This document shows, piece by piece, positions 2,940-44,203 of a stretch of 44,305 nucleotides of DNA. Source of the stretch: an uncultured Bacilli bacterium (GTDB lineage Bacteria; Bacillota_I; Bacilli_A; RF39; UBA660); the NCBI GenBank assembly GCA_947589275.1, contig CANQAQ010000003.1, positions 1 to 44,305 of the forward strand, read 5' to 3'. Numbering within the stretch: the first letter of the stretch is position 1; every line of letters starts with the position of its first letter. Under the pieces are notes generated by a model that saw only the letters and a program-made list of their open reading frames with translations, had not been told where the DNA came from and did no database searches. A program made the translations under genes and the position numbers.

Positions 2940-2992
2940 CTTTTAAATAAATAAAATGTGTTGTATAATAGTGTTAATAGGAGATGAGGTTT

Positions 2993-5359
2993 ATGAATTA
3001 TTGTGGTAATTGTGGTTCTAAACTAACTAAAGATAGTAAATTTTGTTCAAAATGTGGTAATCCTACAGAATTAGGCATTAAAAAAATAAATGAAGAAAAT
3101 GAAAAAAAATTTAAACAAAAGCAAAAAAGAAATGAAGAAAAGGTTCAAAAACTAATATTAAATACAGGTATATCACTAATTGTAATAGCAAGTTTAATAT
3201 TTACCTTATTTTCTTTTAAAAATATATCTGATTTATTTAAAGTAATATTTTTATTTGTAGAATCTATTGTATTTATTTATATATCTATTTTACTTAAGAA
3301 AAATACAAAATCTGGTTATAAAGCATTATTTGCTATCGGTGTTATTATAATTCCTATAATTCTTATATTATTAACTAGTAATTCTTTACTTGGTGCATAT
3401 AGTTTTATGAATGGTGCTGGAATTTATATTTATTTATCAATATCATTTTTATTATGTTCAGTAATATATTTATTAAGTTATAAATTTATAAAATCAAAAT
3501 TATATTTATATTTATCATATATATTTCTTAATTCATCAGTAATATTTTTTGTATCAATAATTAATGAAGTAAATAATATTAGTAGAAATATATCTAATAA
3601 TGTAGAATTTACGTCACTATTAGGTTTTAATTTAATTATTCTAATTATATTATCAATTAAAAAAGATTCAATATTATTAAAAACATTTATAAATTACTTA
3701 AGATTATTTTTAGTAATAGCTTATATATATTTTATGGTTTTAATTTTTATTAATAATCCACTTATGTTTAAATTAATAGATATGATTTTATATCTTGCTA
3801 TTTCATATATTGTTATTATTAAAAGTATAAATAGTAATTCAAATGCTATATTACCAGTATTTATTAATTTAGTAACAATTGTATTTATTAATAATTTATT
3901 ATCTAATTATAATAATGTTTCTATATTTGTTTCAGTATTAGCAATACTACTAATATTCTTTATAAATTATTTAGTAAAAAATAAATGCTTTAAAATATTA
4001 AATTATATAGTAACAATATTATCTACAGTAATAATGTTTTTTATCGCATCACACTATAGTTATAAAGTATTACTTATTTGTTCAATAATAACATTATTAT
4101 CAAGTTTATTTATATATAAAATAGAAGAAGAAAAATCATATAAAAATATAATCTCAACTTTAATTATTGCAAATATATATATTATTGTTTATTCATTAAT
4201 TAAAACAATAACATTAACAAAAAGTATATATATTCCATTAATCGCAAGTATAATATATTCTCTTATATATGTTATTTTAAAAACAAAAAATATTAAAATA
4301 TATAAAACATATGAATTTATATCATATGCATTAATATTAATATCTTCATTATCATTTAACAATTATAATTTAGTTTTTAATATATTAAACGAAATAGTAT
4401 GGGTATATTATTTTACATTAAAACTATTATTTGATGATGAAAGTGATATTAGAAACTTATTACTTGCATTTACAATTATTAATTTATTTTTAATACTTGT
4501 TAGATTTGATATAAAGTTATATTATGTATTATTATCTTTTGCTATGTTATTTACATTTATAGGTATGATATCCTATAATATTAAAAAATTAAATAAAAAA
4601 GTATTTGATATATTATCAATAATATTAATATTATTAACAACATTATTTAATTTTAATAACTATATTATAATGGCATTATGTATAAATATACTTTTATATT
4701 GTTATATATATATAAGTATATTTAAAGATAAAAATATTAATTTTATCTTTAAATTTATATATACTTTAGCTGGTTTTATAATAATTTATAAATTATTTGG
4801 TTACTTTATTAATGTTGATGTAATATCATCTTTATTATCAATTATTACATTTATATTAATAATAATTACTATGTATTTAATGAGAGTAGATGATGATAGA
4901 AAAATTATGTGTTACTTAATTACACTATTTTATCCATACTACGTATTAATTAGTAATATAAATATATTATCAGAATATAGTTTAAGTCTTTTATTAACTC
5001 CTATATTAATTTTTTACATATTTATATTTAGTGAAAAAATTATTAAATTTAATGATAATTCATTAAAAAACATATTTCAAATTATTTTTCTTTCAGTAAT
5101 ATATTTAATTATATTATCAAATTTACATAATGGTACAATTATATACATATATAGTTTGTTATTATCTGTAATATATGTAATATATGGAATATTAAAAAAT
5201 AATAGTTCAATTATAACTTTTGGTTGTATAACTTTATTATTAACAACAATATTATTATTTTTCCAGGTATCAAATAGTTTAGTTATTGTATTTAGTATAT
5301 TATTTATAGGTGTTAGTTTAATAACATATATTTCAATGAAAGAATCAAAAAAGCATTAG
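2993..5359 (+). CDS. Zinc-ribbon domain polytopic membrane protein (DUF2157-like)
   Basis: N-terminal CxxC-x10-CxxC, then many hydrophobic segments; start moved to ATG 2993 because SD AGGAG (2979-2983) abuts ATG 2984. Confidence 0.7.
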   Translation: MNYCGNCGSKLTKDSKFCSKCGNPTELGIKKINEENEKKFKQKQKRNEEKVQKLILNTGISLIVIASLIFTLFSFKNISDLFKVIFLFVESIVFIYISILLKKNTKSGYKALFAIGVIIIPIILILLTSNSLLGAYSFMNGAGIYIYLSISFLLCSVIYLLSYKFIKSKLYLYLSYIFLNSSVIFFVSIINEVNNISRNISNNVEFTSLLGFNLIILIILSIKKDSILLKTFINYLRLFLVIAYIYFMVLIFINNPLMFKLIDMILYLAISYIVIIKSINSNSNAILPVFINLVTIVFINNLLSNYNNVSIFVSVLAILLIFFINYLVKNKCFKILNYIVTILSTVIMFFIASHYSYKVLLICSIITLLSSLFIYKIEEEKSYKNIISTLIIANIYIIVYSLIKTITLTKSIYIPLIASIIYSLIYVILKTKNIKIYKTYEFISYALILISSLSFNNYNLVFNILNEIVWVYYFTLKLLFDDESDIRNLLLAFTIINLFLILVRFDIKLYYVLLSFAMLFTFIGMISYNIKKLNKKVFDILSIILILLTTLFNFNNYIIMALCINILLYCYIYISIFKDKNINFIFKFIYTLAGFIIIYKLFGYFINVDVISSLLSIITFILIIITMYLMRVDDDRKIMCYLITLFYPYYVLISNINILSEYSLSLLLTPILIFYIFIFSEKIIKFNDNSLKNIFQIIFLSVIYLIILSNLHNGTIIYIYSLLLSVIYVIYGILKNNSSIITFGCITLLLTTILLFFQVSNSLVIVFSILFIGVSLITYISMKESKKH

Positions 5360-9915: not shown

Positions 9916-10161
9916 ATGGACTCAAATACTACAAGTATTTTTGATATATCAGATATAGATGATGTATTAGTTGAAGATGTACTTAATGATGTTTATAGTG
10001 CACTAGAAGAAAAAGGATATAATGCAATTAATCAAATTGTAGGATATATAATTAGTGGTGATCCAGGTTATATATCAACATATAAAGAGTCAAGGAAAAA
10101 AATATCTAAACTTGAAAGAACTCAAATTGTAGAAGTTCTTCTTAGAAATTATATGAAATAA
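9916..10161 (+). CDS. IreB/ReoM (UPF0297) regulatory phosphoprotein
   Basis: VYSALEEKGYNAINQIVGYIISGDPGYI. Confidence 0.93.
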   Translation: MDSNTTSIFDISDIDDVLVEDVLNDVYSALEEKGYNAINQIVGYIISGDPGYISTYKESRKKISKLERTQIVEVLLRNYMK

Positions 10162-10592
10162 TGAGATATCTTGGATTAGATTTAGGTACTAAAACACTAG
10201 GTGTATCAATTAGTGATAATCTTGGATTAATTGCAAGTACATATAAAATAATTAGATTTAAAGAAAATGATTATCTATCTTTATTAGAAGAGATAAAAAA
10301 AATAATAAATGAATTTAATATTAATACAATTATTTTAGGGCTTCCTAAGAATATGGATAATTCTTTAGGAGAAGCTTCAAAAAGAAGTATTGATTTTAAA
10401 AAAATTTTGGAAAATAATTTTAATGTATCAGTAGTTTTGCAAGATGAAAGGCTTACAAGTGTTGAAGCTAATAATATTATGATTGATGGTGGTTTATCAA
10501 GAAAAAAAAGAAAAAAATATGTTGATTCTTTAGCTGCAAACATTATACTTCAAAATTATTTAGATAAAAGAGGCGATAATAATGACAAATAA
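10161..10592 (+). CDS. yqgF: YqgF/RuvX pre-16S rRNA nuclease
   Basis: LGLDLGTKTLGVSISD, DERLTS, VDSLAANIILQNYL. Confidence 0.93.
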   Translation: MRYLGLDLGTKTLGVSISDNLGLIASTYKIIRFKENDYLSLLEEIKKIINEFNINTIILGLPKNMDNSLGEASKRSIDFKKILENNFNVSVVLQDERLTSVEANNIMIDGGLSRKKRKKYVDSLAANIILQNYLDKRGDNNDK

Positions 10593-10857
10593 AGAAATAG
10601 GAGAAAATAAATTTACATATATCGATGAAGATGGAATAGAAACTGAATGTGATATTCTATTTACTTTTGATTTAAAGAAAACAGGTAAAAATTATATAAT
10701 ATATACAGATAATACTATAGATGAAAAAGGTTCTATAAGAACATATGCAAGAACCTATGATCCAAATTCTGATACATGTGATCTTGGAAATATAGAAACA
10801 GAAGAAGAATGGAAGATGATAGAAGCAATATTATCATCACTTGTAAAAAATGAATAA
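10582..10857 (+). CDS. DUF1292 (UPF0473, YrzB-like) protein
   Basis: DEDG.E.ECDILFTF, GKNYIIY, IETEEEW; conserved position after yqgF. Confidence 0.88.
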   Translation: MTNKEIGENKFTYIDEDGIETECDILFTFDLKKTGKNYIIYTDNTIDEKGSIRTYARTYDPNSDTCDLGNIETEEEWKMIEAILSSLVKNE

Positions 10858-10876
10858 TATAAAGGAGTAATAAAAT

Positions 10877-11476
10877 ATGCAAAATGATTGTTTAAAAGAA
10901 ATGGAAAAGTATGCAGAAGAAAATAATATACCAATAATGGAAAAAAAAGGTATAAATTTTTTATGTGAATTTATTAGAAAAAATGATATAAAAAAGATTT
11001 TAGAAATTGGTACTGCAATTGGATATTCTGCAATAAAAATGGCATTAGTAGATGATGATATTAATGTTGTTTCCATTGAAAGAAATCAAGATAGGTATAT
11101 AGAAGCAGTTAAAAATATTAAAAAGTGTAAACTAGAAGATAGAATAACTTTAATATTATCAGATGCACTTAATATAGATCTTGAAGATAAATATGATATG
11201 ATTTTTATAGATGCTGCAAAGGGTCAATATATAAACTTTTTTAATCATTATGAAAAAAATTTATTAGATGACGGAATAATTGTAAGTGATAATATGAATT
11301 TTCATGGACTTACTAAAGATGTTGATAAAATTGAAAATAAGAATTTAAGACAATTAGTAACTAAAATAAATGATTATATAGAATTTTTAAAAAATCATGA
11401 AAAATATGATACTAAATTTTATAAAGTAGGAGATGGAATTGCAATTACATATAAGAAGGACATGATTAATGTTTAA
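10877..11476 (+). CDS. trmR: O-methyltransferase, tRNA 5-hydroxyuridine methyltransferase TrmR-like
   Basis: ILEIGTAIGYSA, DMIFIDAAKGQY, SDNMNFHG; adjacent to the U32 pair as in yrrM-yrrN-yrrO. Confidence 0.8.
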   Translation: MQNDCLKEMEKYAEENNIPIMEKKGINFLCEFIRKNDIKKILEIGTAIGYSAIKMALVDDDINVVSIERNQDRYIEAVKNIKKCKLEDRITLILSDALNIDLEDKYDMIFIDAAKGQYINFFNHYEKNLLDDGIIVSDNMNFHGLTKDVDKIENKNLRQLVTKINDYIEFLKNHEKYDTKFYKVGDGIAITYKKDMINV

Positions 11477-12368
11477 AATAATAGTTCCATTTCCTAAAGA
11501 TGAAAATATAAATTATTATTTAGAAAAAGTAGATGGCTTTATATTAGGATTAGAAGAATTTAGTGAAAATTTTAATAGATATGTAAAAATAAATGATTTA
11601 AAAAAATATTGCAATTTAGTAACATCTAAAAATAAGAGTATGTTTATTGCTTTAAATAAGCAATATTTTAATAATGAAATTAAAAAACTTAAAGAGATAT
11701 TATTTTTATTAAATGAACTTAATATATCTGGAGTTATGTTTATTGATTTATCTGTTTTAAACATTATTAATGAAAATAATTTAAGTATTAATCCTATATG
11801 GTTTTCTAATCATTCATCAACTAATTCATATACTATTAACTTTCTTACAAATAGAAATGTTAAAGGTACATTATTAAGTGATGAAATAACTATAGAAGAA
11901 AGACTTAAAATAATGGATAAAATAAATATAGATGTCTTTATTACTTTATTTGGTTATATTAATATAGCAACATCATCAAGAACTCTATTATCTAATTATT
12001 TTAAATATATTAATAAAAATAAAGCTCTGAATAATAATTATTACATAAAAGAAAAAAATAGTGATGATTTTTATCCTATTGTTGAAAATTCAAATACAAA
12101 TTTTTTCTCACATAAAATATTAAATGGTATTAAAGAATTTAAAAAAATTTTAGCAAAAAAAAATAATGGTTATATTGTTTTAAATGATTATATGATAGAT
12201 AGTAACTTGTTTTATACTGTTATTGAATCTTTTAATTTGGTAAAAGAAAATCCAACTGATAATAAGTTAATAGAAGAATTATATAAAAAAATAGATGATA
12301 TTAGTAATAATAATACTTATGATGGATTTTTAAATAAAAAGACTATTTTTAGGGTGAAAAGATTATGA
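11469..12368 (+). CDS. Peptidase U32 family protein, YrrN-like subunit (tRNA hydroxylation)
   Basis: TIM-barrel-like; SSRTLLSNYF and DGFLNKKTIF resemble YrrN; synteny; Fe-S cysteines absent. Confidence 0.75.
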   Translation: MFKIIVPFPKDENINYYLEKVDGFILGLEEFSENFNRYVKINDLKKYCNLVTSKNKSMFIALNKQYFNNEIKKLKEILFLLNELNISGVMFIDLSVLNIINENNLSINPIWFSNHSSTNSYTINFLTNRNVKGTLLSDEITIEERLKIMDKINIDVFITLFGYINIATSSRTLLSNYFKYINKNKALNNNYYIKEKNSDDFYPIVENSNTNFFSHKILNGIKEFKKILAKKNNGYIVLNDYMIDSNLFYTVIESFNLVKENPTDNKLIEELYKKIDDISNNNTYDGFLNKKTIFRVKRL

Positions 12369-13570
12369 AAAAAGTAGAGTTACTTGCACCAGCTGGAGAT
12401 TTAGAAAGATTAAAATGGGCAATTATGTATGGTGCTGATGCTGTATATATAGGTGGTAAAAACTTTAGTTTAAGAGCAAACGCTATTAATTTTACTAATG
12501 AAGAAATAAAAGAAGCAGTAAAATATGCACATAATCATAATGCTAAAGTTTATGTTACAGTAAATATAATCTTTCATGAAGATGATGTAAAAGGTTTAAA
12601 AGAATATCTAGTAGAACTTAAAGAAATTGGTGTAGATGGTATTATATCATCAGATTTATTTATAATAGATTTATTAAAAGAAAATAATATTAATTTGGAT
12701 TTTCATTTAAGTACACAAGCTTGTACTCTTAATAAAGAAGCAGTAAAGTTTTATAAAAAAGAAGGCGTTAAAAGAGTAGTTTTAGCAAGAGAATGTTCAA
12801 AAGAAGATATTAAAGATATAATATCAAGTACTAAAATGGAAACAGAGATATTTATTCATGGCGCAATGTGTACATGTTATTCTGGAAAATGTATGCTTTC
12901 AAATTATTTTACAAATAGAGATTCTAATAGAGGTGGATGTGCACAAATTTGTAGATGGAATTTTTCTTTATTTGATGAAAATAAAAATATTATTGATGGT
13001 GATAGAGATTTTGCAATTTCACCTAAGGATTTATCTCTTTTAAGATTTATACCAGATATAATTGATATTGGTGTAACTTCACTAAAACTAGAAGGTAGAA
13101 TGAAGTCTATTTATTATATAGCAACCATAGTTAGTGTATATAGAAGAGCAATTGATAGATATTATAAAGAAAAGAATAATTATGTATATAATAAAAATGA
13201 TGAAATAGAATTATATAGGTGTGCAAATAGAGAAAATGTTGCGCAATATTTTGATAAAAAACCAGGAGTAGATGAACAATATTATAGTGAAAGAGAAGAA
13301 GACACTAATCAGGATTTTTTAGGTGTTGTACTTTCTTATGATGAAGATAATAAAGAAATAATATTAGAACAGAGAAATTTCTTTAAAGTTAATGATATAG
13401 TAAATATATTTGGGCCAAATAAGGAATCATTCAATATAACAGTTACATATATTAAAAACGAAAGTAATGAATTAGTTGATGCTGCAAGGCATCCTAAAGA
13501 AATTATTAGAATACCATGTTATAAAAAAGTTGATAAATATGATTTAATACGTGTTAATTTTTTTAGTTGA
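12365..13570 (+). CDS. Peptidase U32 family tRNA hydroxylase, YrrO-like
   Basis: ELLAPAG, YGADAVYIGG, HGAMCTCYSGKC..NRGGCAQICR, SLKLEGRMKS. Confidence 0.9.
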   Translation: MKKVELLAPAGDLERLKWAIMYGADAVYIGGKNFSLRANAINFTNEEIKEAVKYAHNHNAKVYVTVNIIFHEDDVKGLKEYLVELKEIGVDGIISSDLFIIDLLKENNINLDFHLSTQACTLNKEAVKFYKKEGVKRVVLARECSKEDIKDIISSTKMETEIFIHGAMCTCYSGKCMLSNYFTNRDSNRGGCAQICRWNFSLFDENKNIIDGDRDFAISPKDLSLLRFIPDIIDIGVTSLKLEGRMKSIYYIATIVSVYRRAIDRYYKEKNNYVYNKNDEIELYRCANRENVAQYFDKKPGVDEQYYSEREEDTNQDFLGVVLSYDEDNKEIILEQRNFFKVNDIVNIFGPNKESFNITVTYIKNESNELVDAARHPKEIIRIPCYKKVDKYDLIRVNFFS

Positions 13571-29918: not shown

Positions 29919-31682
29919 ATGAACACTTTAAAAAAAATAATAAAAAGTATTCTTAATACAATATGTAATATATTTTTATTTATAATTTTATTACCACTTA
30001 ATATATTTAAGTATTTTAATTTATTTTTTTACTATTTAATAAAACTTGCATTAAGAGAGTCACCTGAGAAAAAACAAAAAAGATTAGAAAAAGAAAAAGA
30101 AAGAGAAGAAGAAAAAGAAAAAGAAAGAAAAGAAGCAGAAAAATATATTAGGGAAAAGAATAAAGAAGCTAATATCTCTGCATTAAAAGATGCTCAAAGT
30201 GAAAAAAATAAAATTAATGAGCAAGTTAAAGCTCCTAGTCATAAAATGACTAAAGAAGAGATAAGGGAAGAACATAGAATAGCAAAAGAAAAAATAAAAA
30301 GAGAAAAACAAAGGCAAAGAGAAGAAGCAAGAAAAGAAAAAAAGAGTATTTTAAAACAGTTTAAAGAAAGAAACTTTTTTGCACTTAGAAGACAAAGAAA
30401 ATTAGATTCAAAAAGAAAAGTATTAACATTAGATATAAATTCTGATGATTCAAAAAGAAGTAATGAAAAAATTATATTTAGATATGTAGGTAAAAATGAA
30501 GCAGGTAAAATTGAAAGAGGAACATTCCAAGGATATTCAAAACTTGATGTTCATTCATATTTATTATCTGAAGGATATGAAGTATATGAAATAAAAGCAG
30601 TTGCAAAAGCTAACTTATTTAATACAGATTTATCACTTAATAGACCGATTAAGAAATCTTTATTAGTATTTTATATAACTCAATTATCAACATATTTAAA
30701 AGCAGGTATACCACTTGTTGATTCAATAAAAATATTAACAAAGCAAACAAAATCAAAAAGTGTTAAAACAATTTGGAAATCAATAGTATATGAGCTTACG
30801 ATGGGTGCAAGTCTTAGTGAGGCTATGATAAGATGTGGTAATGTATTTCCAAAATTATTAATTAATATGATTAAAACTGCTGAAATGACTGGTGATTTAC
30901 CTGAGGTACTTGATGAACAAGCAGAGTATTATAAAACTACTGAGCAATCAAAAAGAGAAATGATAAATGCAATGTTATATCCACTTGCAATATTTATTTT
31001 TTCCATTGCAATAATTATATTTATATTATTATATGTAATACCACAATTTGTAGAGATATATGAAAGTATTGGTGCAGACCTTCCATGGTTTACTCAACTT
31101 CTAATAAATATTAGTAATTTTGCATCAAAGAATATTATTTGGATGGCTGTTATTGCTATAGTAATAGTAATAATATTCATAATACTATATAAAAATAATT
31201 CATCATTTAAATATGGTGTTGAATACTTATTAATGCATATTCCTGTTATTAAAAATGTTATAATATATAATGAAGTAACAATGTTTTCGAAGACATTTGC
31301 AACACTTATAAATAATAATATTTTTATAACTGATAGTATGGATATACTAAGTAGAATTACAGAAAATGAAATATATAAAATGATAATATATGACGCAGTA
31401 GAAAATTTATCTAGAGGTGAAAATATTTCTACATCATTTTATGATCATTGGGCTTTCCCTGATATAGCATATCAAATGATAGTAACTGGTGAAAAAACAG
31501 GTCAGTTAGGTATAATGATGGATAAAGTGGGGGATTATTATCATGATGAACATTCAAATGCAATAGCAAGAATCAAAGTATTCATTGAACCAGTATTAAT
31601 TATATTTTTAGCAGTTGGTGTTGGTGGAATATTGCTTGCAGTATTATTACCTATGTTTAATATATATAGTCAAGTTATATAA
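29919..31682 (+). CDS. pilC: Type IV pilus/T2SS platform protein PilC/GspF with N-terminal extension
   Basis: FRYVG..AGKIERG, QLSTYLKAGIPL, AEMTGDL, AMLYP, GEKTGQL, IEPVLI, LLPMF. Confidence 0.9.
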   Translation: MNTLKKIIKSILNTICNIFLFIILLPLNIFKYFNLFFYYLIKLALRESPEKKQKRLEKEKEREEEKEKERKEAEKYIREKNKEANISALKDAQSEKNKINEQVKAPSHKMTKEEIREEHRIAKEKIKREKQRQREEARKEKKSILKQFKERNFFALRRQRKLDSKRKVLTLDINSDDSKRSNEKIIFRYVGKNEAGKIERGTFQGYSKLDVHSYLLSEGYEVYEIKAVAKANLFNTDLSLNRPIKKSLLVFYITQLSTYLKAGIPLVDSIKILTKQTKSKSVKTIWKSIVYELTMGASLSEAMIRCGNVFPKLLINMIKTAEMTGDLPEVLDEQAEYYKTTEQSKREMINAMLYPLAIFIFSIAIIIFILLYVIPQFVEIYESIGADLPWFTQLLINISNFASKNIIWMAVIAIVIVIIFIILYKNNSSFKYGVEYLLMHIPVIKNVIIYNEVTMFSKTFATLINNNIFITDSMDILSRITENEIYKMIIYDAVENLSRGENISTSFYDHWAFPDIAYQMIVTGEKTGQLGIMMDKVGDYYHDEHSNAIARIKVFIEPVLIIFLAVGVGGILLAVLLPMFNIYSQVI

Positions 31683-31693
31683 GGAGTTTTATA

Positions 31694-32503
31694 ATGGAAA
31701 CAATATTATATAGTATATTTATATTCATAATAGGAACTTGTTTTGGTTCCTTCTTTAATGTAGTAGGATATCGTTTGCCTAATAATATGTCTATAGCATA
31801 TCCTTCATCACATTGTCCTAATTGTAAACATAAACTTGGAGTTCTTGAACTTATACCAGTTTTATCTTATATATTTCAATTTGGTAAATGTAAACACTGT
31901 AAGGAAAAAATATCAATATTTTACCCCATATTTGAATTATTAACAGGTATATTATTTGTTATATGTTATCTTGTATTTAAAGATACATATCCAGAAATTT
32001 ATAATGTAATATTTGCAATTGTATTTATATCATCTTTAATAATAATTATTATCAGTGATATAAAATATATGATTATACCAGATGAAGTATTAATATTTTT
32101 TAGTATAATACTTCTTCTAATAAAAATGGTTATAATACATAAATTAAATGTAAATTATACATGGATAGATGTAGGTTATGAACTTTTATTTAGTTTATTT
32201 GATGGAATTATAATGTTTATTATTATGTATGGAATTAGATTTTTTGGTAATTTAATATTTAAAAAAGATTCAATGGGTGGTGGAGATATAAAAATGATGG
32301 CATTTATATCACTATTTATTGGATGGGAATTAGGAGTTGTAGTAATATTTTTAGCATCATTTTTAGCTCTTCCATTATCAATAATAAATATGTATAAAAA
32401 TAAAGAACATATATTAGCATTTGGTCCTTATTTAGCGATAGCAACAATGATTTTATTCTTGTGTAAAATAGATATTAATATGGTAATTGAATTTATATCA
32501 TAA
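31694..32503 (+). CDS. pilD: Prepilin peptidase/N-methyltransferase (A24)
   Basis: GSFFNVVGYRLP, SHCPNC..GKCKHC, D..YMIIPD, MGGGDIK, AFGPYL. Confidence 0.93.
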   Translation: METILYSIFIFIIGTCFGSFFNVVGYRLPNNMSIAYPSSHCPNCKHKLGVLELIPVLSYIFQFGKCKHCKEKISIFYPIFELLTGILFVICYLVFKDTYPEIYNVIFAIVFISSLIIIIISDIKYMIIPDEVLIFFSIILLLIKMVIIHKLNVNYTWIDVGYELLFSLFDGIIMFIIMYGIRFFGNLIFKKDSMGGGDIKMMAFISLFIGWELGVVVIFLASFLALPLSIINMYKNKEHILAFGPYLAIATMILFLCKIDINMVIEFIS

Positions 32504-34744: not shown

Positions 34745-36115
34745 ATGAAGTTTTGTGATAAATTAGCAAAACAAAGAAAAAATAATAATTTAAGTCAAGA
34801 ACAACTTGCAGATAAGTTAGGTGTATCAAGACAAGCTGTTTCAAAATGGGAACAAGGTACGTCTTATCCTGATATGGATAAGATAATAAGTATGTGTAAA
34901 ATACTTAATTGTAATTTAGATGATTTAATTGAAGATGGAATTATAGAAGGAAAGAGTAGTGCAAATAAAATAAATTTTAATAATTATTTTAATGACTTTT
35001 TAAATTTTATAACTAAATCATATAATATGTTTTGGAGTATGAAATTTAAAGAAAAAATAAAATGTTTATTTGAATTATTTATTACATTTTTAATTTTAAT
35101 AATAAGTGGTTTAGTAATATATTTTATAGTTGATGATTTATTTTTTGATAATTTTATGGATGTTTTGGGAATAAATTTTATTATTCAAAAACTAATTAGT
35201 CCTGTATTTATATTATCTTTAATTGTAATAGGAATAATGATATTTTTACACTTATTTAAAATTAGATATTTAGATTATTTCATTACTGTTTATGATAGTG
35301 ATGTAAAAGAAAAAATAAAAGAAAAAGCGTTAGAAGAAGAAAAAGTAGTAAATAATAAAAAATACATAATAGAAAAACCTAAAGAAAAAATAGTAATTAG
35401 AGATCCAAAACATTCTACATTTAATTTTTTTAATGTATTAGGTAAAATAATATTATATATATTAAAATTCTTTATTTTTATCCTTATGATATTAGCTATA
35501 TTTTTTACAATAGCTTTAATAGCAATAGGTGCTATATGGATAACATTTATTAAATATGGAGACATTTTTATATATCTACTTATAACTATTATAGGTTTAG
35601 TATGTATTAGTTTTATAATAATTAATTTCTTATATAATTTTATATTTAATAGAGCAACAAAACTTAAATTAAATTTTATACTATTTATAATATCTTTAAT
35701 ATTTATTGGTGTAGGTTTAGGAATTAGTACAATAAAATTTATGAATTATGATTATGTTACTTTAGATAAATCTAAACTTGAAATTCATGAAAAAATAATA
35801 CCTATGAAAGATAATATTGTATTACCACATAATAATATAAATTATATTATTGATAATAACCAAAATGATATAAAACTTAAAATATATTTACCTAAAAATA
35901 CAAGTTATACAATATATTATAATAAAGATCAGTATGAAATTTATCATATATACATGGATAATTTATCAATATTTGATATGTATAATATTACATTAAATGA
36001 ATTAAAAGAAAATAAAATAATTGACTATGATAAATCATTTATAATAGATGTATATATATCAGAAAAAAATTATGAAATAATTAAAGAAAATATAGATAAT
36101 TATTATGGATATTAA
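34745..36115 (+). CDS. XRE-family HTH regulator fused to a multi-TM membrane domain
   Basis: LSQEQLADKLGVSRQAVSKWEQG..YPD followed by several TM segments. Confidence 0.85.
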   Translation: MKFCDKLAKQRKNNNLSQEQLADKLGVSRQAVSKWEQGTSYPDMDKIISMCKILNCNLDDLIEDGIIEGKSSANKINFNNYFNDFLNFITKSYNMFWSMKFKEKIKCLFELFITFLILIISGLVIYFIVDDLFFDNFMDVLGINFIIQKLISPVFILSLIVIGIMIFLHLFKIRYLDYFITVYDSDVKEKIKEKALEEEKVVNNKKYIIEKPKEKIVIRDPKHSTFNFFNVLGKIILYILKFFIFILMILAIFFTIALIAIGAIWITFIKYGDIFIYLLITIIGLVCISFIIINFLYNFIFNRATKLKLNFILFIISLIFIGVGLGISTIKFMNYDYVTLDKSKLEIHEKIIPMKDNIVLPHNNINYIIDNNQNDIKLKIYLPKNTSYTIYYNKDQYEIYHIYMDNLSIFDMYNITLNELKENKIIDYDKSFIIDVYISEKNYEIIKENIDNYYGY

Positions 36116-36141
36116 AGTTATGTTTTTACATAACTTTTTTT
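36114..36141 (+). terminator. Terminator after the XRE gene
   Basis: aaagttatgt-tttt-acataacttt followed by a T run. Confidence 0.7.
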
Positions 36142-36244
36142 ATAAATTGACAATATAAATAAAAATTACTTATAAAGTAATTTTTTTATTTTAATTTTAA
36201 TTATTTAATGATATAATTAACATATAGTAAAGGTAGGATAAAAA

Positions 36245-38893
36245 ATGAAAAATAAAAAAGGATTTACATTAATAGAATTACTAGCAGTAATAGTAATATT
36301 ATCAATAATAATGATAATAGCAGTACCAAAAATAATAAATATAATAGAAGAAGCAGATAGAAGAGCATATGAAAATAGTGTAAACTTAATGGTAGAAGCA
36401 GCAAGATTAAAATATCAAACAGGAACTATGAAAGGAGAAGATATAAAATTACCATTAACATATATATATGAAGGAAATAAACAAACAAATATAGAAGAAG
36501 TAGGAGAATTAGTATTTAAAGGAGATAAAGCAAATTCAGGAACAATAACAGTAAATCAAGAAGGAAAAATAGTAGTAGAAAACTTAGTAAGTAAAAATAA
36601 AAAATGGTGTGCAGTAAAACAAGCAAATAATGCAGAAGCAAAAGTAGGAAGAGCAAGCGTTTTAGGGTGTTCTATAGATGATAATGATGATAATAATGGT
36701 GATGATGAAGAAGAGATAATAAAAGACAAAGAAGCATGTAGTTTAGAACAAGATAGTAAAAATGAAAATATATATTATGTAGATTCAGTAAGTGATTTAT
36801 ATGAATTATCAAAAGAAGTAAATGAAGGAAATAACTATAGTGGTAAGATAATAAAACTAAGAAATAATATAGATATGAAAGATACAAGTAATAAATGTGG
36901 ACTAGAAAGTTTTGAACCAATAGGAAATAATAGTAAACCATTTAGTGGTACATTTGAAGGATTAGGAAATTCAATAAAGAATTTAGTAATAAATAAGCAA
37001 GGACAAGATGATATTGGATTATTTGGAAATAACTCTGGAACAATAAAAGGATTAAGTTTAGAAAATATAGATATAAAAGGTAAAAGTAGTATTGGTGGAT
37101 TAGTAGGACGAAATAATAATGGAAAAATAAGTGACATTATAATAAATGGAAAAGTAGAAGGAACTGGTGAAAATATTGGTGGACTAGTAGGAGTTCATAG
37201 TGGTACTATAGCAAATATAATAATGAATGTAGATGTAAATAAAGATGTAACGGGAGCAACTAGAGTAAGTGCAGTATTGGGTAATTTAGGAATTGGAACA
37301 CGATCAGTTAATAACGTAATTATAGAAGGTGGAGAAATAAATGGAAGATTAGAATATTATAGTAGTTATTCAGAAAATGTTTTGCATAATGATTCTAAAG
37401 AAAAATATCCTTCTAATCTATATTCAAAAGAAGCAATAGGTGATATAAATACATACGAAACTTATATAGATACATATATAGGTGGGGATGATGATGACTC
37501 AGGATATTACTTTGATTATGATAGCAAGGGAAAATTAGTAATAAAAAGTATAGAAAAAAATCCAATAGAATTTAATTTAAAAGGAAAAGGAACACAAGAT
37601 GATCCATATTTAATAGAAAATTATGAAGACTGGAAAGAAGCAACAACAAAGGTAGACCAAGTAAATATAGTATTTAAGTTAACAAAAGATATAGATTTTA
37701 CAGGTAAGAAATTTTATATGTTAGGAAGTTATCAGAATCAGTTTAATGGACATTTAATTGGAGATGGATATAGTCTTAAGAATGTTAATTTAAATGGTGG
37801 AGATTATCAAGGAATTATTGGATATGTTGGAACTGAAGGTATAGTTGAAGGTATAAATGTAAAATCTTTAAATACAAATAATACTTTTAATTATGTAGGA
37901 GTAATAGGATACAATAAAGGGATTGTTAAAGGTATAAATATATATAATGTATATGTAATAGGTAGAAGTTATATAGGTGGATTGGTTGGCTATAATGAAG
38001 GAAAAATATTAGAAATTACTATAGAAGGAAATATATATGGAGTTGTAAATGAAGAACAATTTATAGGTGGAGCAGTTGGACTAAATAATGGAACAATAAG
38101 AGGAATATTAGCTAATGTAAATGTTACAAGTTCTTATAATACTACATTTGCACGTTCTTCAGGAGGTTTATTTGGTCAAAATGGTAGAGGTACAATATAT
38201 AATTCAGTTATTGAAACTGGTAATGTATTGGCAGAGAATATAGTTATGGGTAGAGGAGCTTCTTCATATGATGTATATTATTGTGAGGGTGTAACAACTA
38301 CAGGTAGTATATTTACTAAATCAATACCTAGTATATATATAAATGATTTAACATATTATGATAGTATGTTAAATGATAAAAATGAGCCATTATTTGAAAG
38401 TAAATATACAGGAGATATGAATGATTCTGGATATTTCTTTGATTATAATAGTGATGGAAAAATATATGTAGTAAAAGCTTATAATATGAATTATGGTGAT
38501 AATAGTATAGATGAAAATTATACAATGACACATATAGAACAAGGAGCATCAGATCAAACACCACCAGTATGTACATTAGATTATGTAGTAGCAGTAAAAA
38601 ATGGAATAAGAGCATCATTTAGCTGCGTAGATGAAAGTGGAGCGCCAACAATAAGGTCACTATTTGATTCAACTACAAGTTTATCAGCAAGTACATATGA
38701 AGATATAGGAACAAATAAAAATGGAGTAGTAAATGGAAATACTAGAAGTATAGTAAGTACATGGACAATAAATGATCCAGTATCAGTGCCAGAAAGAGGA
38801 AAGTGTTATTATTTTAGATATGGAGGTCAAGATACAGCAGGTAATTTTAGTACATATGTAACAAAAAGATGTTATACAGGTTTTAGTAATTAG
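36245..38893 (+). CDS. Large type IV prepilin-fused protein with duplicated GLUG-type beta-helical modules and a C-terminal Ig-like module
   Basis: KKG|FTLIELLAVIVILSII class III signal with E+5; repeated IGGLVG motifs; two modules ending DSGY(Y/F)FDY; DQTPPVC...DTAGN. Confidence 0.85.
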   Translation: MKNKKGFTLIELLAVIVILSIIMIIAVPKIINIIEEADRRAYENSVNLMVEAARLKYQTGTMKGEDIKLPLTYIYEGNKQTNIEEVGELVFKGDKANSGTITVNQEGKIVVENLVSKNKKWCAVKQANNAEAKVGRASVLGCSIDDNDDNNGDDEEEIIKDKEACSLEQDSKNENIYYVDSVSDLYELSKEVNEGNNYSGKIIKLRNNIDMKDTSNKCGLESFEPIGNNSKPFSGTFEGLGNSIKNLVINKQGQDDIGLFGNNSGTIKGLSLENIDIKGKSSIGGLVGRNNNGKISDIIINGKVEGTGENIGGLVGVHSGTIANIIMNVDVNKDVTGATRVSAVLGNLGIGTRSVNNVIIEGGEINGRLEYYSSYSENVLHNDSKEKYPSNLYSKEAIGDINTYETYIDTYIGGDDDDSGYYFDYDSKGKLVIKSIEKNPIEFNLKGKGTQDDPYLIENYEDWKEATTKVDQVNIVFKLTKDIDFTGKKFYMLGSYQNQFNGHLIGDGYSLKNVNLNGGDYQGIIGYVGTEGIVEGINVKSLNTNNTFNYVGVIGYNKGIVKGINIYNVYVIGRSYIGGLVGYNEGKILEITIEGNIYGVVNEEQFIGGAVGLNNGTIRGILANVNVTSSYNTTFARSSGGLFGQNGRGTIYNSVIETGNVLAENIVMGRGASSYDVYYCEGVTTTGSIFTKSIPSIYINDLTYYDSMLNDKNEPLFESKYTGDMNDSGYFFDYNSDGKIYVVKAYNMNYGDNSIDENYTMTHIEQGASDQTPPVCTLDYVVAVKNGIRASFSCVDESGAPTIRSLFDSTTSLSASTYEDIGTNKNGVVNGNTRSIVSTWTINDPVSVPERGKCYYFRYGGQDTAGNFSTYVTKRCYTGFSN

Positions 38894-38905
38894 GAGGTAA
38901 TTATA

Positions 38906-39379
38906 ATGAAAAAAATATTATTGATAATATTGATTGGAATTATAATATTTACAGGTTGCGGAAAAGAAGATGGTGAAAAGATAAAATATAAAAAAACAAA
39001 TATGGAACTAGTAGATAAAGTATCAAATATTGTTATAAATGATAAAAAGATATTTGATGAAGTAAACATATTAAATGATAATACATTAGAAACAAAATTA
39101 GGAATAAATAGAGACTTTGTAATAGAACATGCTATTGCATTAGATATTTATTCATATAATCCAAATATTTATATTATAATAAAACCAAAAGAAGAAAATA
39201 AAAAAACAGTAAAAAAGGCAATAAGTTTATATTTAGATAGTGCAAAACAAGGAGTAATAGATGAATATAAAGAAATATATGAAAATGCATTAATTGAAGA
39301 ATATAATGGATATTATATTTGTATAGTTTCAGATAATAATGCTGAAGTATTTAATAAAATAAAAGGATATTTAGACTAG
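38906..39379 (+). CDS. Lipoprotein, DUF4358-like
   Basis: Lipobox IFTG|C; ENALIEEYNGYYICIVSD C-terminus; SD overlaps the upstream stop. Confidence 0.65.
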   Translation: MKKILLIILIGIIIFTGCGKEDGEKIKYKKTNMELVDKVSNIVINDKKIFDEVNILNDNTLETKLGINRDFVIEHAIALDIYSYNPNIYIIIKPKEENKKTVKKAISLYLDSAKQGVIDEYKEIYENALIEEYNGYYICIVSDNNAEVFNKIKGYLD

Positions 39380-39433
39380 TAAATATCTTTTTTTTATTAA
39401 TTATGATATAATTAGTATAAGGATAGTGGTACT

Positions 39434-40798
39434 GTGAAAAAGAAAAAAAGAAAAGGAAGATTAAGGTATGATAGAATATTTATGGCCCTATTTATAATAT
39501 TTGCTATAGTATTTTCTATAAAATTTGCCATCTATTTATCATATAATAATAAAATATATAAGACTGTAACAAATTCAAATAATTTATCTATAACTATAAA
39601 TAAAAAATATAATAAATTAAAATTATATAATAAGACTATAAAATATATAAAAGAAAATAAAAATAGTGTAATTATTTCATCAAAAAAATATAGTGTTACT
39701 ATACCTTCAAAAAACATAACAAAAAATGCTAATTTAGATGTTAGTATGTATAGTAAAAGATTAGAGTATGATAATTTTTCAAAATCTAAAGCTTATTTTA
39801 TAGATAATAAAGGAATAATAAGTAAATCAAATAAAATAAAGATATTATTACCTAGATATTTATTAAAAAATGATATTGTAGATATTTATGGTGTTACTAA
39901 AGATAATAAAATAGAAGAAATAAATCTTAAAGTTAAAATAAAAGATAAAAAAGTATCATTTGATTTAAATGAAAAATATTCAAAATACTTTATAACTTAT
40001 GTAAAACTAAAAGATATAAAAGTTAAAGATATTACTTTAAATAAAGGAAGTAAAATAAACTTAGATATTAAATATGTACCTATTAGAGCAACTGTTAAAA
40101 GTTTTGAATATATTAAAATAGGTGATATATTTATGTTAAATGATAATAATGAATTAATTGCAGAGAAATCTGGAACTGATAAAGTTACAATTAAAATTAA
40201 TGACTCAAATATTAAAAAAGATATTACTATAAATGTTAAAGAAGAAGAAAAAAAGAAACCTATTATTAAAGTTATTGATGGACTTACATATGTTAATGAT
40301 ATACTTATAGTAAATAAAACATATGAATTACCTAGTGATTATGATCCAGGTCAATTATCTGATGAAGCTATTTCCGCTTTTAATACTATGAAGGAAGCAG
40401 CTAAAAAAGATAATATATCACTATGGATAGCATCTGGTTATAGATCATATACTACACAAGATGAATTATATAATTATTATTTAAAACATGATACTAAAGA
40501 TAAGGTAGATACATATTCTGCAAGACCTGGACATTCTGAACATCAAACTGGTTTAGCAATGGATTTAAATATTGTAGATTCATCATTTGAAGGTACTAAA
40601 GAAGCTATATGGATAGAAGAAAACTGTTATAAATATGGTTTTATAATTAGGTATCCTAAGGGTAAAGAAAATATAACAGGATATAAATATGAACCATGGC
40701 ACGTAAGATATTTAGGTAAAGATTTAGCAAAAAAAGTATATGATAGTAATCTTACATTAGAAGAATATTTAGATATTGATTCAAAATATAGCGAATAA
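39434..40798 (+). CDS. M15B (VanY/LdcB-like) carboxypeptidase with membrane anchor and Ig-like stalk
   Basis: SGYRSY..Q, SARPGHSEHQTGLAMD, YEPWHVRY. Confidence 0.9.
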   Translation: MKKKKRKGRLRYDRIFMALFIIFAIVFSIKFAIYLSYNNKIYKTVTNSNNLSITINKKYNKLKLYNKTIKYIKENKNSVIISSKKYSVTIPSKNITKNANLDVSMYSKRLEYDNFSKSKAYFIDNKGIISKSNKIKILLPRYLLKNDIVDIYGVTKDNKIEEINLKVKIKDKKVSFDLNEKYSKYFITYVKLKDIKVKDITLNKGSKINLDIKYVPIRATVKSFEYIKIGDIFMLNDNNELIAEKSGTDKVTIKINDSNIKKDITINVKEEEKKKPIIKVIDGLTYVNDILIVNKTYELPSDYDPGQLSDEAISAFNTMKEAAKKDNISLWIASGYRSYTTQDELYNYYLKHDTKDKVDTYSARPGHSEHQTGLAMDLNIVDSSFEGTKEAIWIEENCYKYGFIIRYPKGKENITGYKYEPWHVRYLGKDLAKKVYDSNLTLEEYLDIDSKYSE

Positions 40799-43426: not shown

Positions 43427-44203
43427 ATGAATAAAAAAGGATTTGCATCATCAGTAATAATATATACAATATTTGCAATATTTTTAGTAGCAATAAGTAT
43501 AATGTTATTTACAGTAAATAATAGTGTTGCGTTAAACAAAGCATTAAATGAAGGTACATTAAACAATATATCATATGGATCAGATTCAGTAAGTGATTTA
43601 GAAGAAAGAATTGCAGCATTAGAAAGTACTATAGTGGATAAAATATATCCAGTTGGAAGTATATATATAAGTGCTGAAGATGATACAGTCGAAAAAGTAA
43701 AAGAAAGATTTGGAGGAGAATGGGAAGCATATTCAAAAGGTACAACACTTGTAGGAAGTGGAACATATACTGATAGTAATGGTAATGTAGCAACATATAC
43801 TGTAAATGGAAAACAAGAAGGTAGTAACTTGGTAAAATTAACAACAGAAAACTTACCAAGTCATAGTCATAGTATAAGTCATACTCATACATATAGTGGA
43901 ACAACAGCTGGTTCTGGTAGTCATACACATTCATTTTCTAATGGAGGTAATGCTATTGTAGTAGGATCTAATGTTAATCATACTACTTATGCTGATGGAT
44001 TTGCATCATTTACAAATGGTGGCTGGTGGAATCAGACTAACAAAGCATCTTCTGCTATAGCTTCTGTTGCTAATCATACACATACGTATAGCGGAACAAC
44101 AAAACAAGCAAGCACTACAACAAGTGGACTTACAGGGTCAGGGACAGCATTTAATGCACATGATCCATATATAACAGTTTATATGTATAAAAGGGTAAAA
44201 TAA
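43427..44203 (+). CDS. Prepilin-like leader fused to a phage baseplate gp10-C/tail-fibre-like domain
   Basis: MNKKG|F plus hydrophobic helix; IYPVGSIYIS..FGGEWE..LVG..LTTENLPSHSH..PYITVYMYKR; four HxH doublets. Confidence 0.8.
   Translation: MNKKGFASSVIIYTIFAIFLVAISIMLFTVNNSVALNKALNEGTLNNISYGSDSVSDLEERIAALESTIVDKIYPVGSIYISAEDDTVEKVKERFGGEWEAYSKGTTLVGSGTYTDSNGNVATYTVNGKQEGSNLVKLTTENLPSHSHSISHTHTYSGTTAGSGSHTHSFSNGGNAIVVGSNVNHTTYADGFASFTNGGWWNQTNKASSAIASVANHTHTYSGTTKQASTTTSGLTGSGTAFNAHDPYITVYMYKRVK
43880..44101 (+). repeat. Intragenic 27-nt direct repeat (HTHTYSGTT x2)
   Basis: 43880-43906 catactcatacatatagtggaacaaca versus 44075-44101 catacacatacgtatagcggaacaaca (24/27 identical). Confidence 0.85.

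Follow-up and report, generated by a model that had tools for sequence, protein, structure and literature searches.

An A-ending codon dialect, mosaic within genes and recurrent across species, in pilin-fused adhesin genes of an uncultured gut Bacilli bacterium

Contig CANQAQ010000003.1 of GenBank assembly GCA_947589275.1, from an uncultured Bacilli bacterium of the RF39 lineage (UBA660), is a 44,305-nucleotide stretch that we analysed whole and refer to as the window. At positions 36,245–38,893 of its forward strand lies a gene for a type IV prepilin fused to a putative adhesin, whose four-fold silent sites show the highest-scoring excess of A over T in the genome. The assembly (here G000, with the window as its contig C3) comprises 904,416 bases in 56 contigs, has a GC content of 23.6% and is 89.6% complete. 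The window reads well under translation table 11, the closest public records to the genome are uncultured gut genomes labelled 'Bacilli', 'Tenericutes' or 'Mycoplasmatota' together with 'Clostridium sp. CAG:433', and contigs containing the stretch occur in rabbit-gut metagenome runs.

The encoded protein begins with KKGFTLIELLAVIVIL, a class III prepilin signal in which the G|FxxxE motif for cleavage and methylation precedes a hydrophobic helix, and matches Pfam N_methyl (E=1.4e-8) and TIGR02532 (29.4 bits; cut-off 16.3). After the N-terminal type IV pilin domain come an acidic linker, two putative GLUG-type β-helix modules that are homologous to each other (internal repeats) and a distinct C-terminal domain. 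Solved pilin structures in the PDB match residues 1–64 only, which correspond to the pilin N-terminus; PF07581 (GLUG) gives no direct match at E≤0.01, and many homologues of residues 505–725 carry precomputed PF07581 assignments. Genes for a PilC-type platform protein (29919–31682, matching T2SSF) and a prepilin peptidase (31694–32503, matching A24_N_bact and Peptidase_A24) lie 4–6 kb upstream.

A preliminary description of this DNA had counted by hand the four-fold codons ending in A in three blocks of the gene, and all of these counts were reproduced exactly: codons 1–137 (36245–36655) have 45 A and 1 T at 46 such codons, with ATA at 16 of 16 Ile codons; the block 38522–38800 has 42 A, 2 G and 2 T of 46; and the block 38102–38329 has 18 A and 22 T of 40. 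Its reference figure, 21 of 36 codons ending in A among the first 92 codons of valS, is likewise correct. Over the whole gene, the 307 four-fold codons end in A 224 times, in T 76 times, in G 6 times and in C once. We computed the A share at four-fold sites, A4/(A4+T4), for the 806 open reading frames (ORFs) of at least 100 residues in the genome; it averages 0.52 (s.d. 0.085), and the adhesin gene has the highest score of all (z=7.9).

Ordinary AT bias does not account for this, as the preliminary description had argued. When the expected A count at each site is modelled from the codon box and the following base, the N-terminal block has 45 A against 24.4 expected (z=6.2) and the C-terminal block 42 against 23.6 (z=5.6); amino-acid content and next-base context are therefore rejected as causes. 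The block 37775–38404 has 43 A against 42.1 expected (z=0.2), so that the part earlier seen as a switch to T-rich usage in a putative binding region is in fact ordinary genome usage. Among 39,153 overlapping sliding windows of 46 consecutive four-fold sites across the 0.90-Mb genome, 58 contain at least 40 A; 52 of these fall in the adhesin gene, six in its paralogue C18:179–1720 and none elsewhere, so that saturation to this degree is confined to two pilin-bearing genes and absent from unrelated ones.

Penalised segmentation over the 386 A/T-exchangeable silent sites of the gene yielded five segments, compared with a single segment in 99 of 100 permuted series. The gene and its segments are as follows.

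36245–38893, forward strand: prepilin-fused adhesin gene, 882 residues (ORF and translation)
36260–36655, forward strand: segment 1, pilin domain (codons 6–137); A-saturated, 61 of 62 A/T-exchangeable silent sites A
36659–37483, forward strand: segment 2, linker and β-helix module 1 (codons 139–413); intermediate bias, 85 of 116 sites A
37499–37702, forward strand: segment 3, connector between the modules (codons 419–486); conserved and A-saturated, 23 of 23 sites A
37703–38329, forward strand: segment 4, core of module 2 (codons 487–695); variable, ordinary genome usage, 62 of 110 sites A
38333–38881, forward strand: segment 5, end of module 2 and C-terminal domain (codons 697–879); A-rich, 67 of 75 sites A

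Saturation largely follows conservation. Amino-acid identity to the closest orthologue, in the related genome G004, is 0.63–0.76 in the A-saturated segments and 0.31–0.47 in the ordinary-usage block. By segment, it is 0.31–0.66 to the G004 orthologue in segment 2, 0.58–0.73 to orthologues in segment 3, 0.31–0.52 to orthologues in segment 4 and 0.63–0.76 in segment 5, whose DNA matches the C-terminus of the G004 orthologue at 80.6% identity. The best non-self relative of segment 4 among 5.8 billion proteins is 40% identical. Segment 1 shares 89% of its DNA and 79% of its protein sequence with the paralogue C18:179–1720, where the same 151-residue pilin domain is joined to a DUF285/leucine-rich-repeat (LRR) adhesin; the domain is thus a constant carrier for different binding modules. 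Compared over this domain, the two paralogues have 31 codons with an amino-acid difference and only eight synonymous differences, which is the expected consequence of silent sites being pinned.

The idea of a constant/variable mosaic, put forward in the preliminary description, thus holds for this gene in that its saturated segments are the conserved ones, and it fails for the closest orthologue, which is saturated throughout, variable part included (A/T 26/1, 29/2 and 21/2). We take the switch in usage to be a mark of lineage history rather than functional design; most simply, it would arise if sequence of ordinary usage now and then took the place of a variable module and was recoded only slowly afterwards. 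Whether selection or mutation maintains the bias, the switch within the gene would mark sites of module exchange. A contig of an independent strain from another sample covers 36620–39432 and has the same module-2 block, with 20 substitutions, 12 of the 20 listed being clustered in 37216–37409, and two 9-nucleotide in-frame indels, a deletion at 37391 in module 1 and an insertion at 38188 in module 2; an 879-residue variant of the adhesin is also present in a protein cluster. No flanking direct repeats that would mark an insertion were found around the adhesin gene.

The preliminary description had also raised the possibility of a process akin to a diversity-generating retroelement (DGR). A PF00078 search of the 89.6% complete assembly found no reverse transcriptase, no second copy of 37703–38329 occurs in the genome and none lies within 35900–39700 to serve as a template repeat, and the A excess sits in the conserved parts; this option did not survive.

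The non-coding DNA around the gene does not share the bias, with an A share of 0.49 on one flank and 0.42 on the other, and genome-wide intergenic DNA read in the sense direction has 0.523. All remaining genes of the window apart from the two below lie at 0.41–0.61, which, with the flanks, rules out a regional effect. Features upstream of the adhesin gene, and the two further genes of the window that share its bias, are these.

36116–36244, forward strand: upstream non-coding DNA, with a hairpin and T-run after an XRE-family gene; A/(A+T) 0.49 (56 A, 58 T), not A-enriched
36147–36152 (TTGACA) and 36209–36217 (TGATATAAT), forward strand: putative promoter-like elements, read by eye from the sequence
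36230–36237 (AAGGTAGG), forward strand: putative ribosome-binding site, read by eye from the sequence
38906–39379, forward strand: small lipoprotein gene, 12 nucleotides downstream of the adhesin gene, with a lipobox N-terminus; 28 A of 34 four-fold sites, z=3.5
43427–44203, forward strand: fibre gene, with a pilin-like hydrophobic N-terminus and then a Gp10_C domain (PF21939, E=2.4e-15); A4/T4 74/36, z=3.2

A scan for consensus promoters and terminators returned 39 sites against 38.0 in shuffled sequence and did not single out the putative promoter and terminator. The A bias seen earlier in the neighbouring lipoprotein gene is borne out by its 28 of 34 sites. In the fibre gene the first 11 four-fold codons all end in A, as had been noted, and the A count declines along its length from 19 of 22 to 10 of 22; the tip is less depleted than was stated, with A at 17 of the last 33 four-fold codons where about 11 of 33 had been given.

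There are three fibre paralogues in the genome (window 43427–44203, C18:16493–17629 and C7:153–1094), two of them at contig ends; they have a near-identical pilin-like N-terminus lacking the Glu5 position, a coiled-coil-like stretch and a phage baseplate Gp10_C domain. They too are mosaics: DNA identity along the gene runs 0.94, 0.77, 0.94, 0.94, 0.53, 0.68 and 0.93, and the conserved blocks have 47 A and 12 T where the variable blocks have 22 A and 23 T. Ranked by z, the genome is headed by the two pilin–adhesin paralogues (7.9 and 7.0), two of the three fibre paralogues (5.0 and 4.9) and an IS3 transposase (4.0), followed by a pentapeptide-repeat protein, a pilin fused to BspA-type LRRs, a collagen-like protein, the neighbouring lipoprotein and the third fibre gene; transposase genes of the IS3 and IS110 types have raised A shares of 0.64–0.77. 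Elsewhere in the window, a 791-residue ORF at 2984–5359 has an N-terminal zinc-ribbon-like CxxC...CxxC motif and no NCBIfam match, and its region is the most AT-rich of the window (GC 0.147–0.164, with negative AT skew).

Several general causes can be set aside. Genes co-oriented with the G-rich strand have an A share of 0.527 and the others 0.457, which rejects replication strand as the cause. General secretion fails as well: 83 proteins with only an N-terminal transmembrane or signal segment average 0.516, and 12 lipoprotein-like ones 0.566, which is not significant. Nor is this the codon usage of high expression, since genes for ribosomal proteins and RNA polymerase favour codons ending in T or C, as well as CGT, whereas the adhesin gene prefers A; rpoB and rpoC have A shares of 0.39–0.43 and ribosomal-protein genes 0.32–0.57.

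The signature recurs in relatives. From eight related genomes (six belonging to this genus, two to other genera) we collected 20 regions and scored prepilin-fused genes of at least 350 residues against the local non-pilin background: 21 of 24 reach z>2 and 12 of 24 z>4, the extreme being the closest orthologue (G004, locus L014; 323 A, 32 T, z=13.5), and two are not enriched (z=−0.1 and −1.5). Lipoprotein orthologues directly downstream of the large pilin gene have A shares of 0.88 in G004, 0.76 in G007 and 0.63 in G009. A further 76 loci were taken from named public genomes; there, z>4 was reached by 8 of 21 pilin genes of at least 400 residues, 10 of 22 of 250–399 residues, 1 of 78 small pilins and, among 923 other genes, by 18, including several for other large surface proteins; five tandem 685-residue pilin genes in one of these loci and one 881-residue gene show no bias. 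The signature is common in the large pilin-fused class across the clade, but it is not universal.

These relatives also show that the bias persists while silent sites turn over. Housekeeping orthologues of this genome and four others of the genus are 66–74% identical in protein and share the base at 0.54–0.59 of the four-fold sites in conserved codon boxes, where chance gives 0.45–0.46; with turnover almost complete, a passive legacy from the common ancestor is untenable. In five cases (G001, G004 twice, G007 and G010) the cassettes separate genes whose orthologues are direct neighbours in G000, and this variable chromosomal location places them in the flexible genome. With housekeeping silent sites nearly randomised and the cassettes at different chromosomal places, we conclude that the bias is being maintained and has not simply been inherited. 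The class has almost the same codon usage here as in the relatives (r=0.995). Its dialect does not extend beyond ORFs, is nearly identical in the species of the genus that we examined and persists despite the turnover of silent sites.

Comparison of the cassette insertions (loci L013–L032 against G000 contigs C9, C10, C25 and C37) revealed no integrase or flanking repeat. The G009 orthologue (L025, G009:C2 8941–10765) is split into a 152-residue pilin-domain ORF (A share 0.87), an ex-coding gap, a 247-residue adhesin fragment (0.66) and the lipoprotein gene (0.63), and is possibly a decaying copy with fading bias. As weak evidence for selection on codon choice, apparent broken remnants are less biased, at 0.66 and 0.63 for the G009 fragments and 0.62 for a remnant in G004.

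Movable cassettes raise the question of whether the usage is a legacy of horizontal transfer, brought by a mobile pool from A-preferring home lineages and not yet adapted to this genome. Besides the five insertion cases and the A-rich IS3 and IS110 transposases, many paralogues sit at contig ends, and locus-wide four-fold A shares in related low-GC gut Bacilli (L033–L112) range from 0.24 to 0.78, so that the choice between A and T at silent sites is evolutionarily labile in the clade. No donor was found for any part, however, and the class lies nearer to the codon usage of its own genome (r=0.95–0.96) than to that of the sampled A-preferring lineages L040 and L061+L071 (0.92–0.94), L102 being the closest outside at 0.97. 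The use of ATA differs sharply, making up 0.77–0.80 of Ile codons in the class and 0.28–0.30 in L040 and L061+L071; A-preferring lineages such as these still prefer ATT over ATA. Conserved segments diverge between species much as housekeeping proteins do (0.63–0.76 against 0.66–0.74), which points to residence in the genus, as does the fact that paralogues within a genome are closer than orthologues. GC content, at 0.27 against 0.236 for the genome, is also not atypical in the usual AT-richer direction. On balance we regard a transfer legacy as unlikely.

What exactly is shifted was measured by log odds ratios (lnOR) of class against background, stratified by genome. In the family boxes, lnOR is 1.00 ± 0.04 for A/T, 0.85 ± 0.09 for C/T, 0.82 ± 0.08 for G/T and −0.05 ± 0.12 for G/C; for Ile it is 0.98 ± 0.08 for ATA/ATT and 0.63 ± 0.21 for ATC/ATT. 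Two-fold boxes ending in a pyrimidine (NNY) do not move (C/T −0.01 ± 0.07), those ending in a purine (NNR) hardly do (G/A 0.11 ± 0.07), and Ser AGY over TCN stands at 0.49 ± 0.06. All eight family boxes move the same way, and the shift is of similar size in all nine boxes, including Gly and Ile. T-ending codons are replaced, mostly by A-ending ones, wherever both are silent, that is, in the eight family boxes and Ile.

The shift stops at silent positions. At codon positions 1 and 2, the saturated and the ordinary segments of the adhesin gene have much the same base composition. Across 68 pilin-fused genes, excess A at four-fold sites shows no relation to A/T at codon position 1 (rho=−0.10) and a weak one at position 2 (0.24), and Ile against Leu/Phe goes in the wrong direction for a leakage of A/T exchange into the protein. 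Third-position A/T pairs that change the amino acid (Glu/Asp, Lys/Asn, Gln/His, Leu/Phe and Arg/Ser) have a pooled share of 0.481 in biased and 0.480 in unbiased genes (rho=−0.01).

This anatomy bears first on selection at the nucleotide level of the mRNA, in which avoidance of U, preference for A or purine loading would give an unstructured or nuclease-resistant message. The coding strand of the adhesin gene does have the highest AT and GC skews in the window, and the preference for Ser AGY goes the same way. Yet a force that moves A/T by an lnOR of 1.0, and by about 3.7 in the saturated block, should also move NNY, NNR and G/C, and none of these moves; U still makes up about 26% of the saturated segments, and neither Rho nor Hfq was found in the 89.6% complete assembly. 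With the two-fold boxes and G/C unmoved, both U avoidance and classical purine loading, which predicts G over C as well as A over T at silent sites, are rejected, and with them the preliminary suggestion of selection against U as it was worded. In any remaining form, selection of this kind is very improbable.

Concerted evolution is an equally remote prospect. Recombination might homogenise multi-copy constant segments into A blocks, and a purine-asymmetric strand, which has been proposed to promote cassette exchange at antigenic-variation loci, might assist it. Constant N-termini common to the paralogues, the clear mosaics among the fibre paralogues, the coincidence of saturated with conserved segments and the breaks of public assemblies in the N-terminal region would all fit. 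But homogenisation copies sequence and gives no reason for A, so that the homogenised constant segments proposed earlier cannot create the bias; identity between the pilin N-termini is no more than 89%, and the bias is equally strong in the single-copy lipoprotein gene and in the unique C-terminal domain. The unmoved G/C ratio means that the asymmetry is not one of purine against pyrimidine, and the G004 orthologue is saturated in its variable part.

A more serious contender, although still an improbable one in our estimate, is a bias towards sense-strand T-to-A exchange, by mutation, repair or conversion, that is tied to these transcription units and filtered by purifying selection to silent sites. 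The codon families affected are exactly those with a silent T/A exchange, with C/T in NNY and A/G in NNR untouched; all nine boxes shift to a similar extent, although they are read by different types of tRNA; the bias extends to the co-oriented lipoprotein gene; and G/A falls slightly (−0.17 ± 0.08), as a simple exchange model predicts. Against it, no footprint is seen at non-synonymous A/T-exchangeable sites, not even at the conservative Asp/Glu pair in fast-evolving proteins, and neither adjacent non-coding DNA nor the spacers between class genes are enriched; in relatives the spacers have A shares of 0.51–0.62, for example 0.55 in a 662-nucleotide spacer between genes at 0.67 and 0.71. The family-box C/T shift of 0.85 also exceeds the value of about 0.45 that we estimate for such a process at a transition:transversion ratio of 2, highly transcribed genes lean to T, the replication-strand effect is small, and no reverse transcriptase was found in the assembly. 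We know of no mechanism for a sense-strand exchange bias of this kind. The strand-specific mutational process suggested in the preliminary description is thus weakened, its match to the affected codon families standing and its expected traces in proteins and spacers missing.

The lack of leakage into protein composition or spacers favours selection on codon choice, and T being depleted equally against A, C and G is what mutation–selection balance would give if T-ending codons were disfavoured. We accordingly lean, with a probability of roughly 40%, towards a reading in which the bias is kept by selection on codon choice and the blocks of ordinary usage are exchanged variable modules. The adhesin, downstream lipoprotein and pilin-like fibre genes would then form a class of type-IV-pilus-associated surface-protein cassettes with a synonymous dialect of their own, which natural selection on codon choice at the translation of these mRNAs, and not mutation, composition or recombination, would maintain. 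Module 2 and the variable blocks of the fibre genes would be recently exchanged modules that have not yet been recoded.

A number of observations weigh against this preference for selection on codons. The static NNY and NNR boxes are awkward, as selection for wobble quality should favour C in NNY, as it does in ribosomal-protein and RNA-polymerase genes; Gly and Ile shift as much as the boxes read by wobble-uridine tRNAs, where tRNA-based selection predicts otherwise; and highly expressed genes lean the opposite way. The adhesin gene itself, with 6 G and 1 C at its 307 four-fold codons, is 'A only', unlike the class average. Preferred codons at conserved residues are significant only between segments and not within them (odds ratio 1.24–1.63, z 0.8–1.7); the same test in housekeeping genes gives an odds ratio of 1.09 (z=2.1). 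Finally, the 31 genes of the tRNA set come from an assembly that is about 90% complete. EF-Tu did not turn up in it either (only EF-G/LepA-type matches), and this gap and the low number of tRNA genes fit its incompleteness, which makes claims of absence for this genome weak.

One speculative form of selection on codons concerns wobble. T-ending family-box codons need non-Watson–Crick wobble, so a message without them might be independent of the state of wobble modification or of tRNA supply. The window contains, at 10161–13570, ruvX, an S-adenosylmethionine (SAM)-methyltransferase-like gene and two U32-peptidase genes, an order that we take to match the yrrK–yrrM–yrrN–yrrO cluster of B. subtilis; the TrhP model gives the larger U32 gene 294.7 bits, short of its equivalog cut-off of 534 bits, and the gene is best called TrhP-like. 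Chorismate synthase and a CM_2 chorismate mutase were not found in the roughly 90% complete assembly. In B. subtilis, yrrM, yrrN and yrrO make mo5U34, a prephenate-dependent modification that assists the decoding of family-box codons ending in G or a pyrimidine (PMC6599085). A dialect lacking U-ending family-box codons could thus free translation of the adhesin from wobble, its output being set by tRNA modification state or tRNA supply, an idea to which we give somewhat less credence than to transfer or exchange bias. If the modification state depends on gut-community metabolites, the dialect may act as a codon-level switch between nutrients and attachment, conserved in a clade of reduced-genome Bacilli.

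We found no account of this pattern in pilin or adhesin genes in the literature searched, which was mostly without subscription journals. Codon differences within a genome are usually mild and are ascribed to expression level or foreign origin, and the adhesin class fits neither. One close parallel is the 'third class' of surface- and mobile-element genes that work of 1991 and 1999 reportedly recognised in E. coli and B. subtilis. There, as here, genes for pili or the cell surface group with transposases in a codon usage that matches neither the highly expressed genes nor most other genes, and they belong to the flexible genome. Unlike that class, the genes described here have no overall AT enrichment and undergo a pure silent swap of T for A with G and C endings unchanged; the bias reaches 98% in blocks, is mosaic within genes and persists across species whose silent sites are nearly randomised.

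DGRs share with this locus a variable region in a surface-binding protein and the involvement of adenine in the signature. They deplete A in the variable repeat rather than add it, whereas here the A excess lies in the conserved parts, and neither reverse transcriptase nor template repeat was found in the 89.6% complete assembly. Translational selection in highly expressed genes likewise brings one synonymous codon per family close to saturation in particular genes, but the direction here is opposite to that of ribosomal-protein and RNA-polymerase genes, and NNY boxes show no preference for C.

The surplus of A over T on the coding strand of Firmicutes has been put down to selection and not to mutation (Charneski et al. 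2011, PMC3174206). Our case resembles it in that A likewise outnumbers T on the sense strand of a low-GC, Firmicute-type genome; it differs in that codon positions 1 and 2 are unremarkable and the effect is carried by the silent third positions of a handful of genes. With respect to tRNA modification, two articles state that xo5U34 expands reading to G- and pyrimidine-ending family-box codons (PMC6599085, PMC12288880), and a P. aeruginosa study reports only subtle codon effects. The likeness to transcripts tunable by modification would lie in the codons removed here, U-ending family-box codons that these articles describe as dependent on xo5U34 wobble, and in the yrrM/yrrN/yrrO-like cluster of the window; the difference is that an equally large shift is seen in Ile and Gly, whose tRNAs do not carry xo5U34.

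Set against these systems, what we describe is a codon dialect specific to a gene class. Codon-usage classes as such are known; one that exchanges only A and T, is nearly total, is mosaic within genes, is maintained across species and runs opposite to highly expressed genes is unusual. If selection keeps the bias, silent sites in these genes carry information for the attachment of uncultured gut bacteria, and the dialect is a possible sequence-only marker of such genes; a targeted mutational process, should one be responsible instead, would be a novel one.

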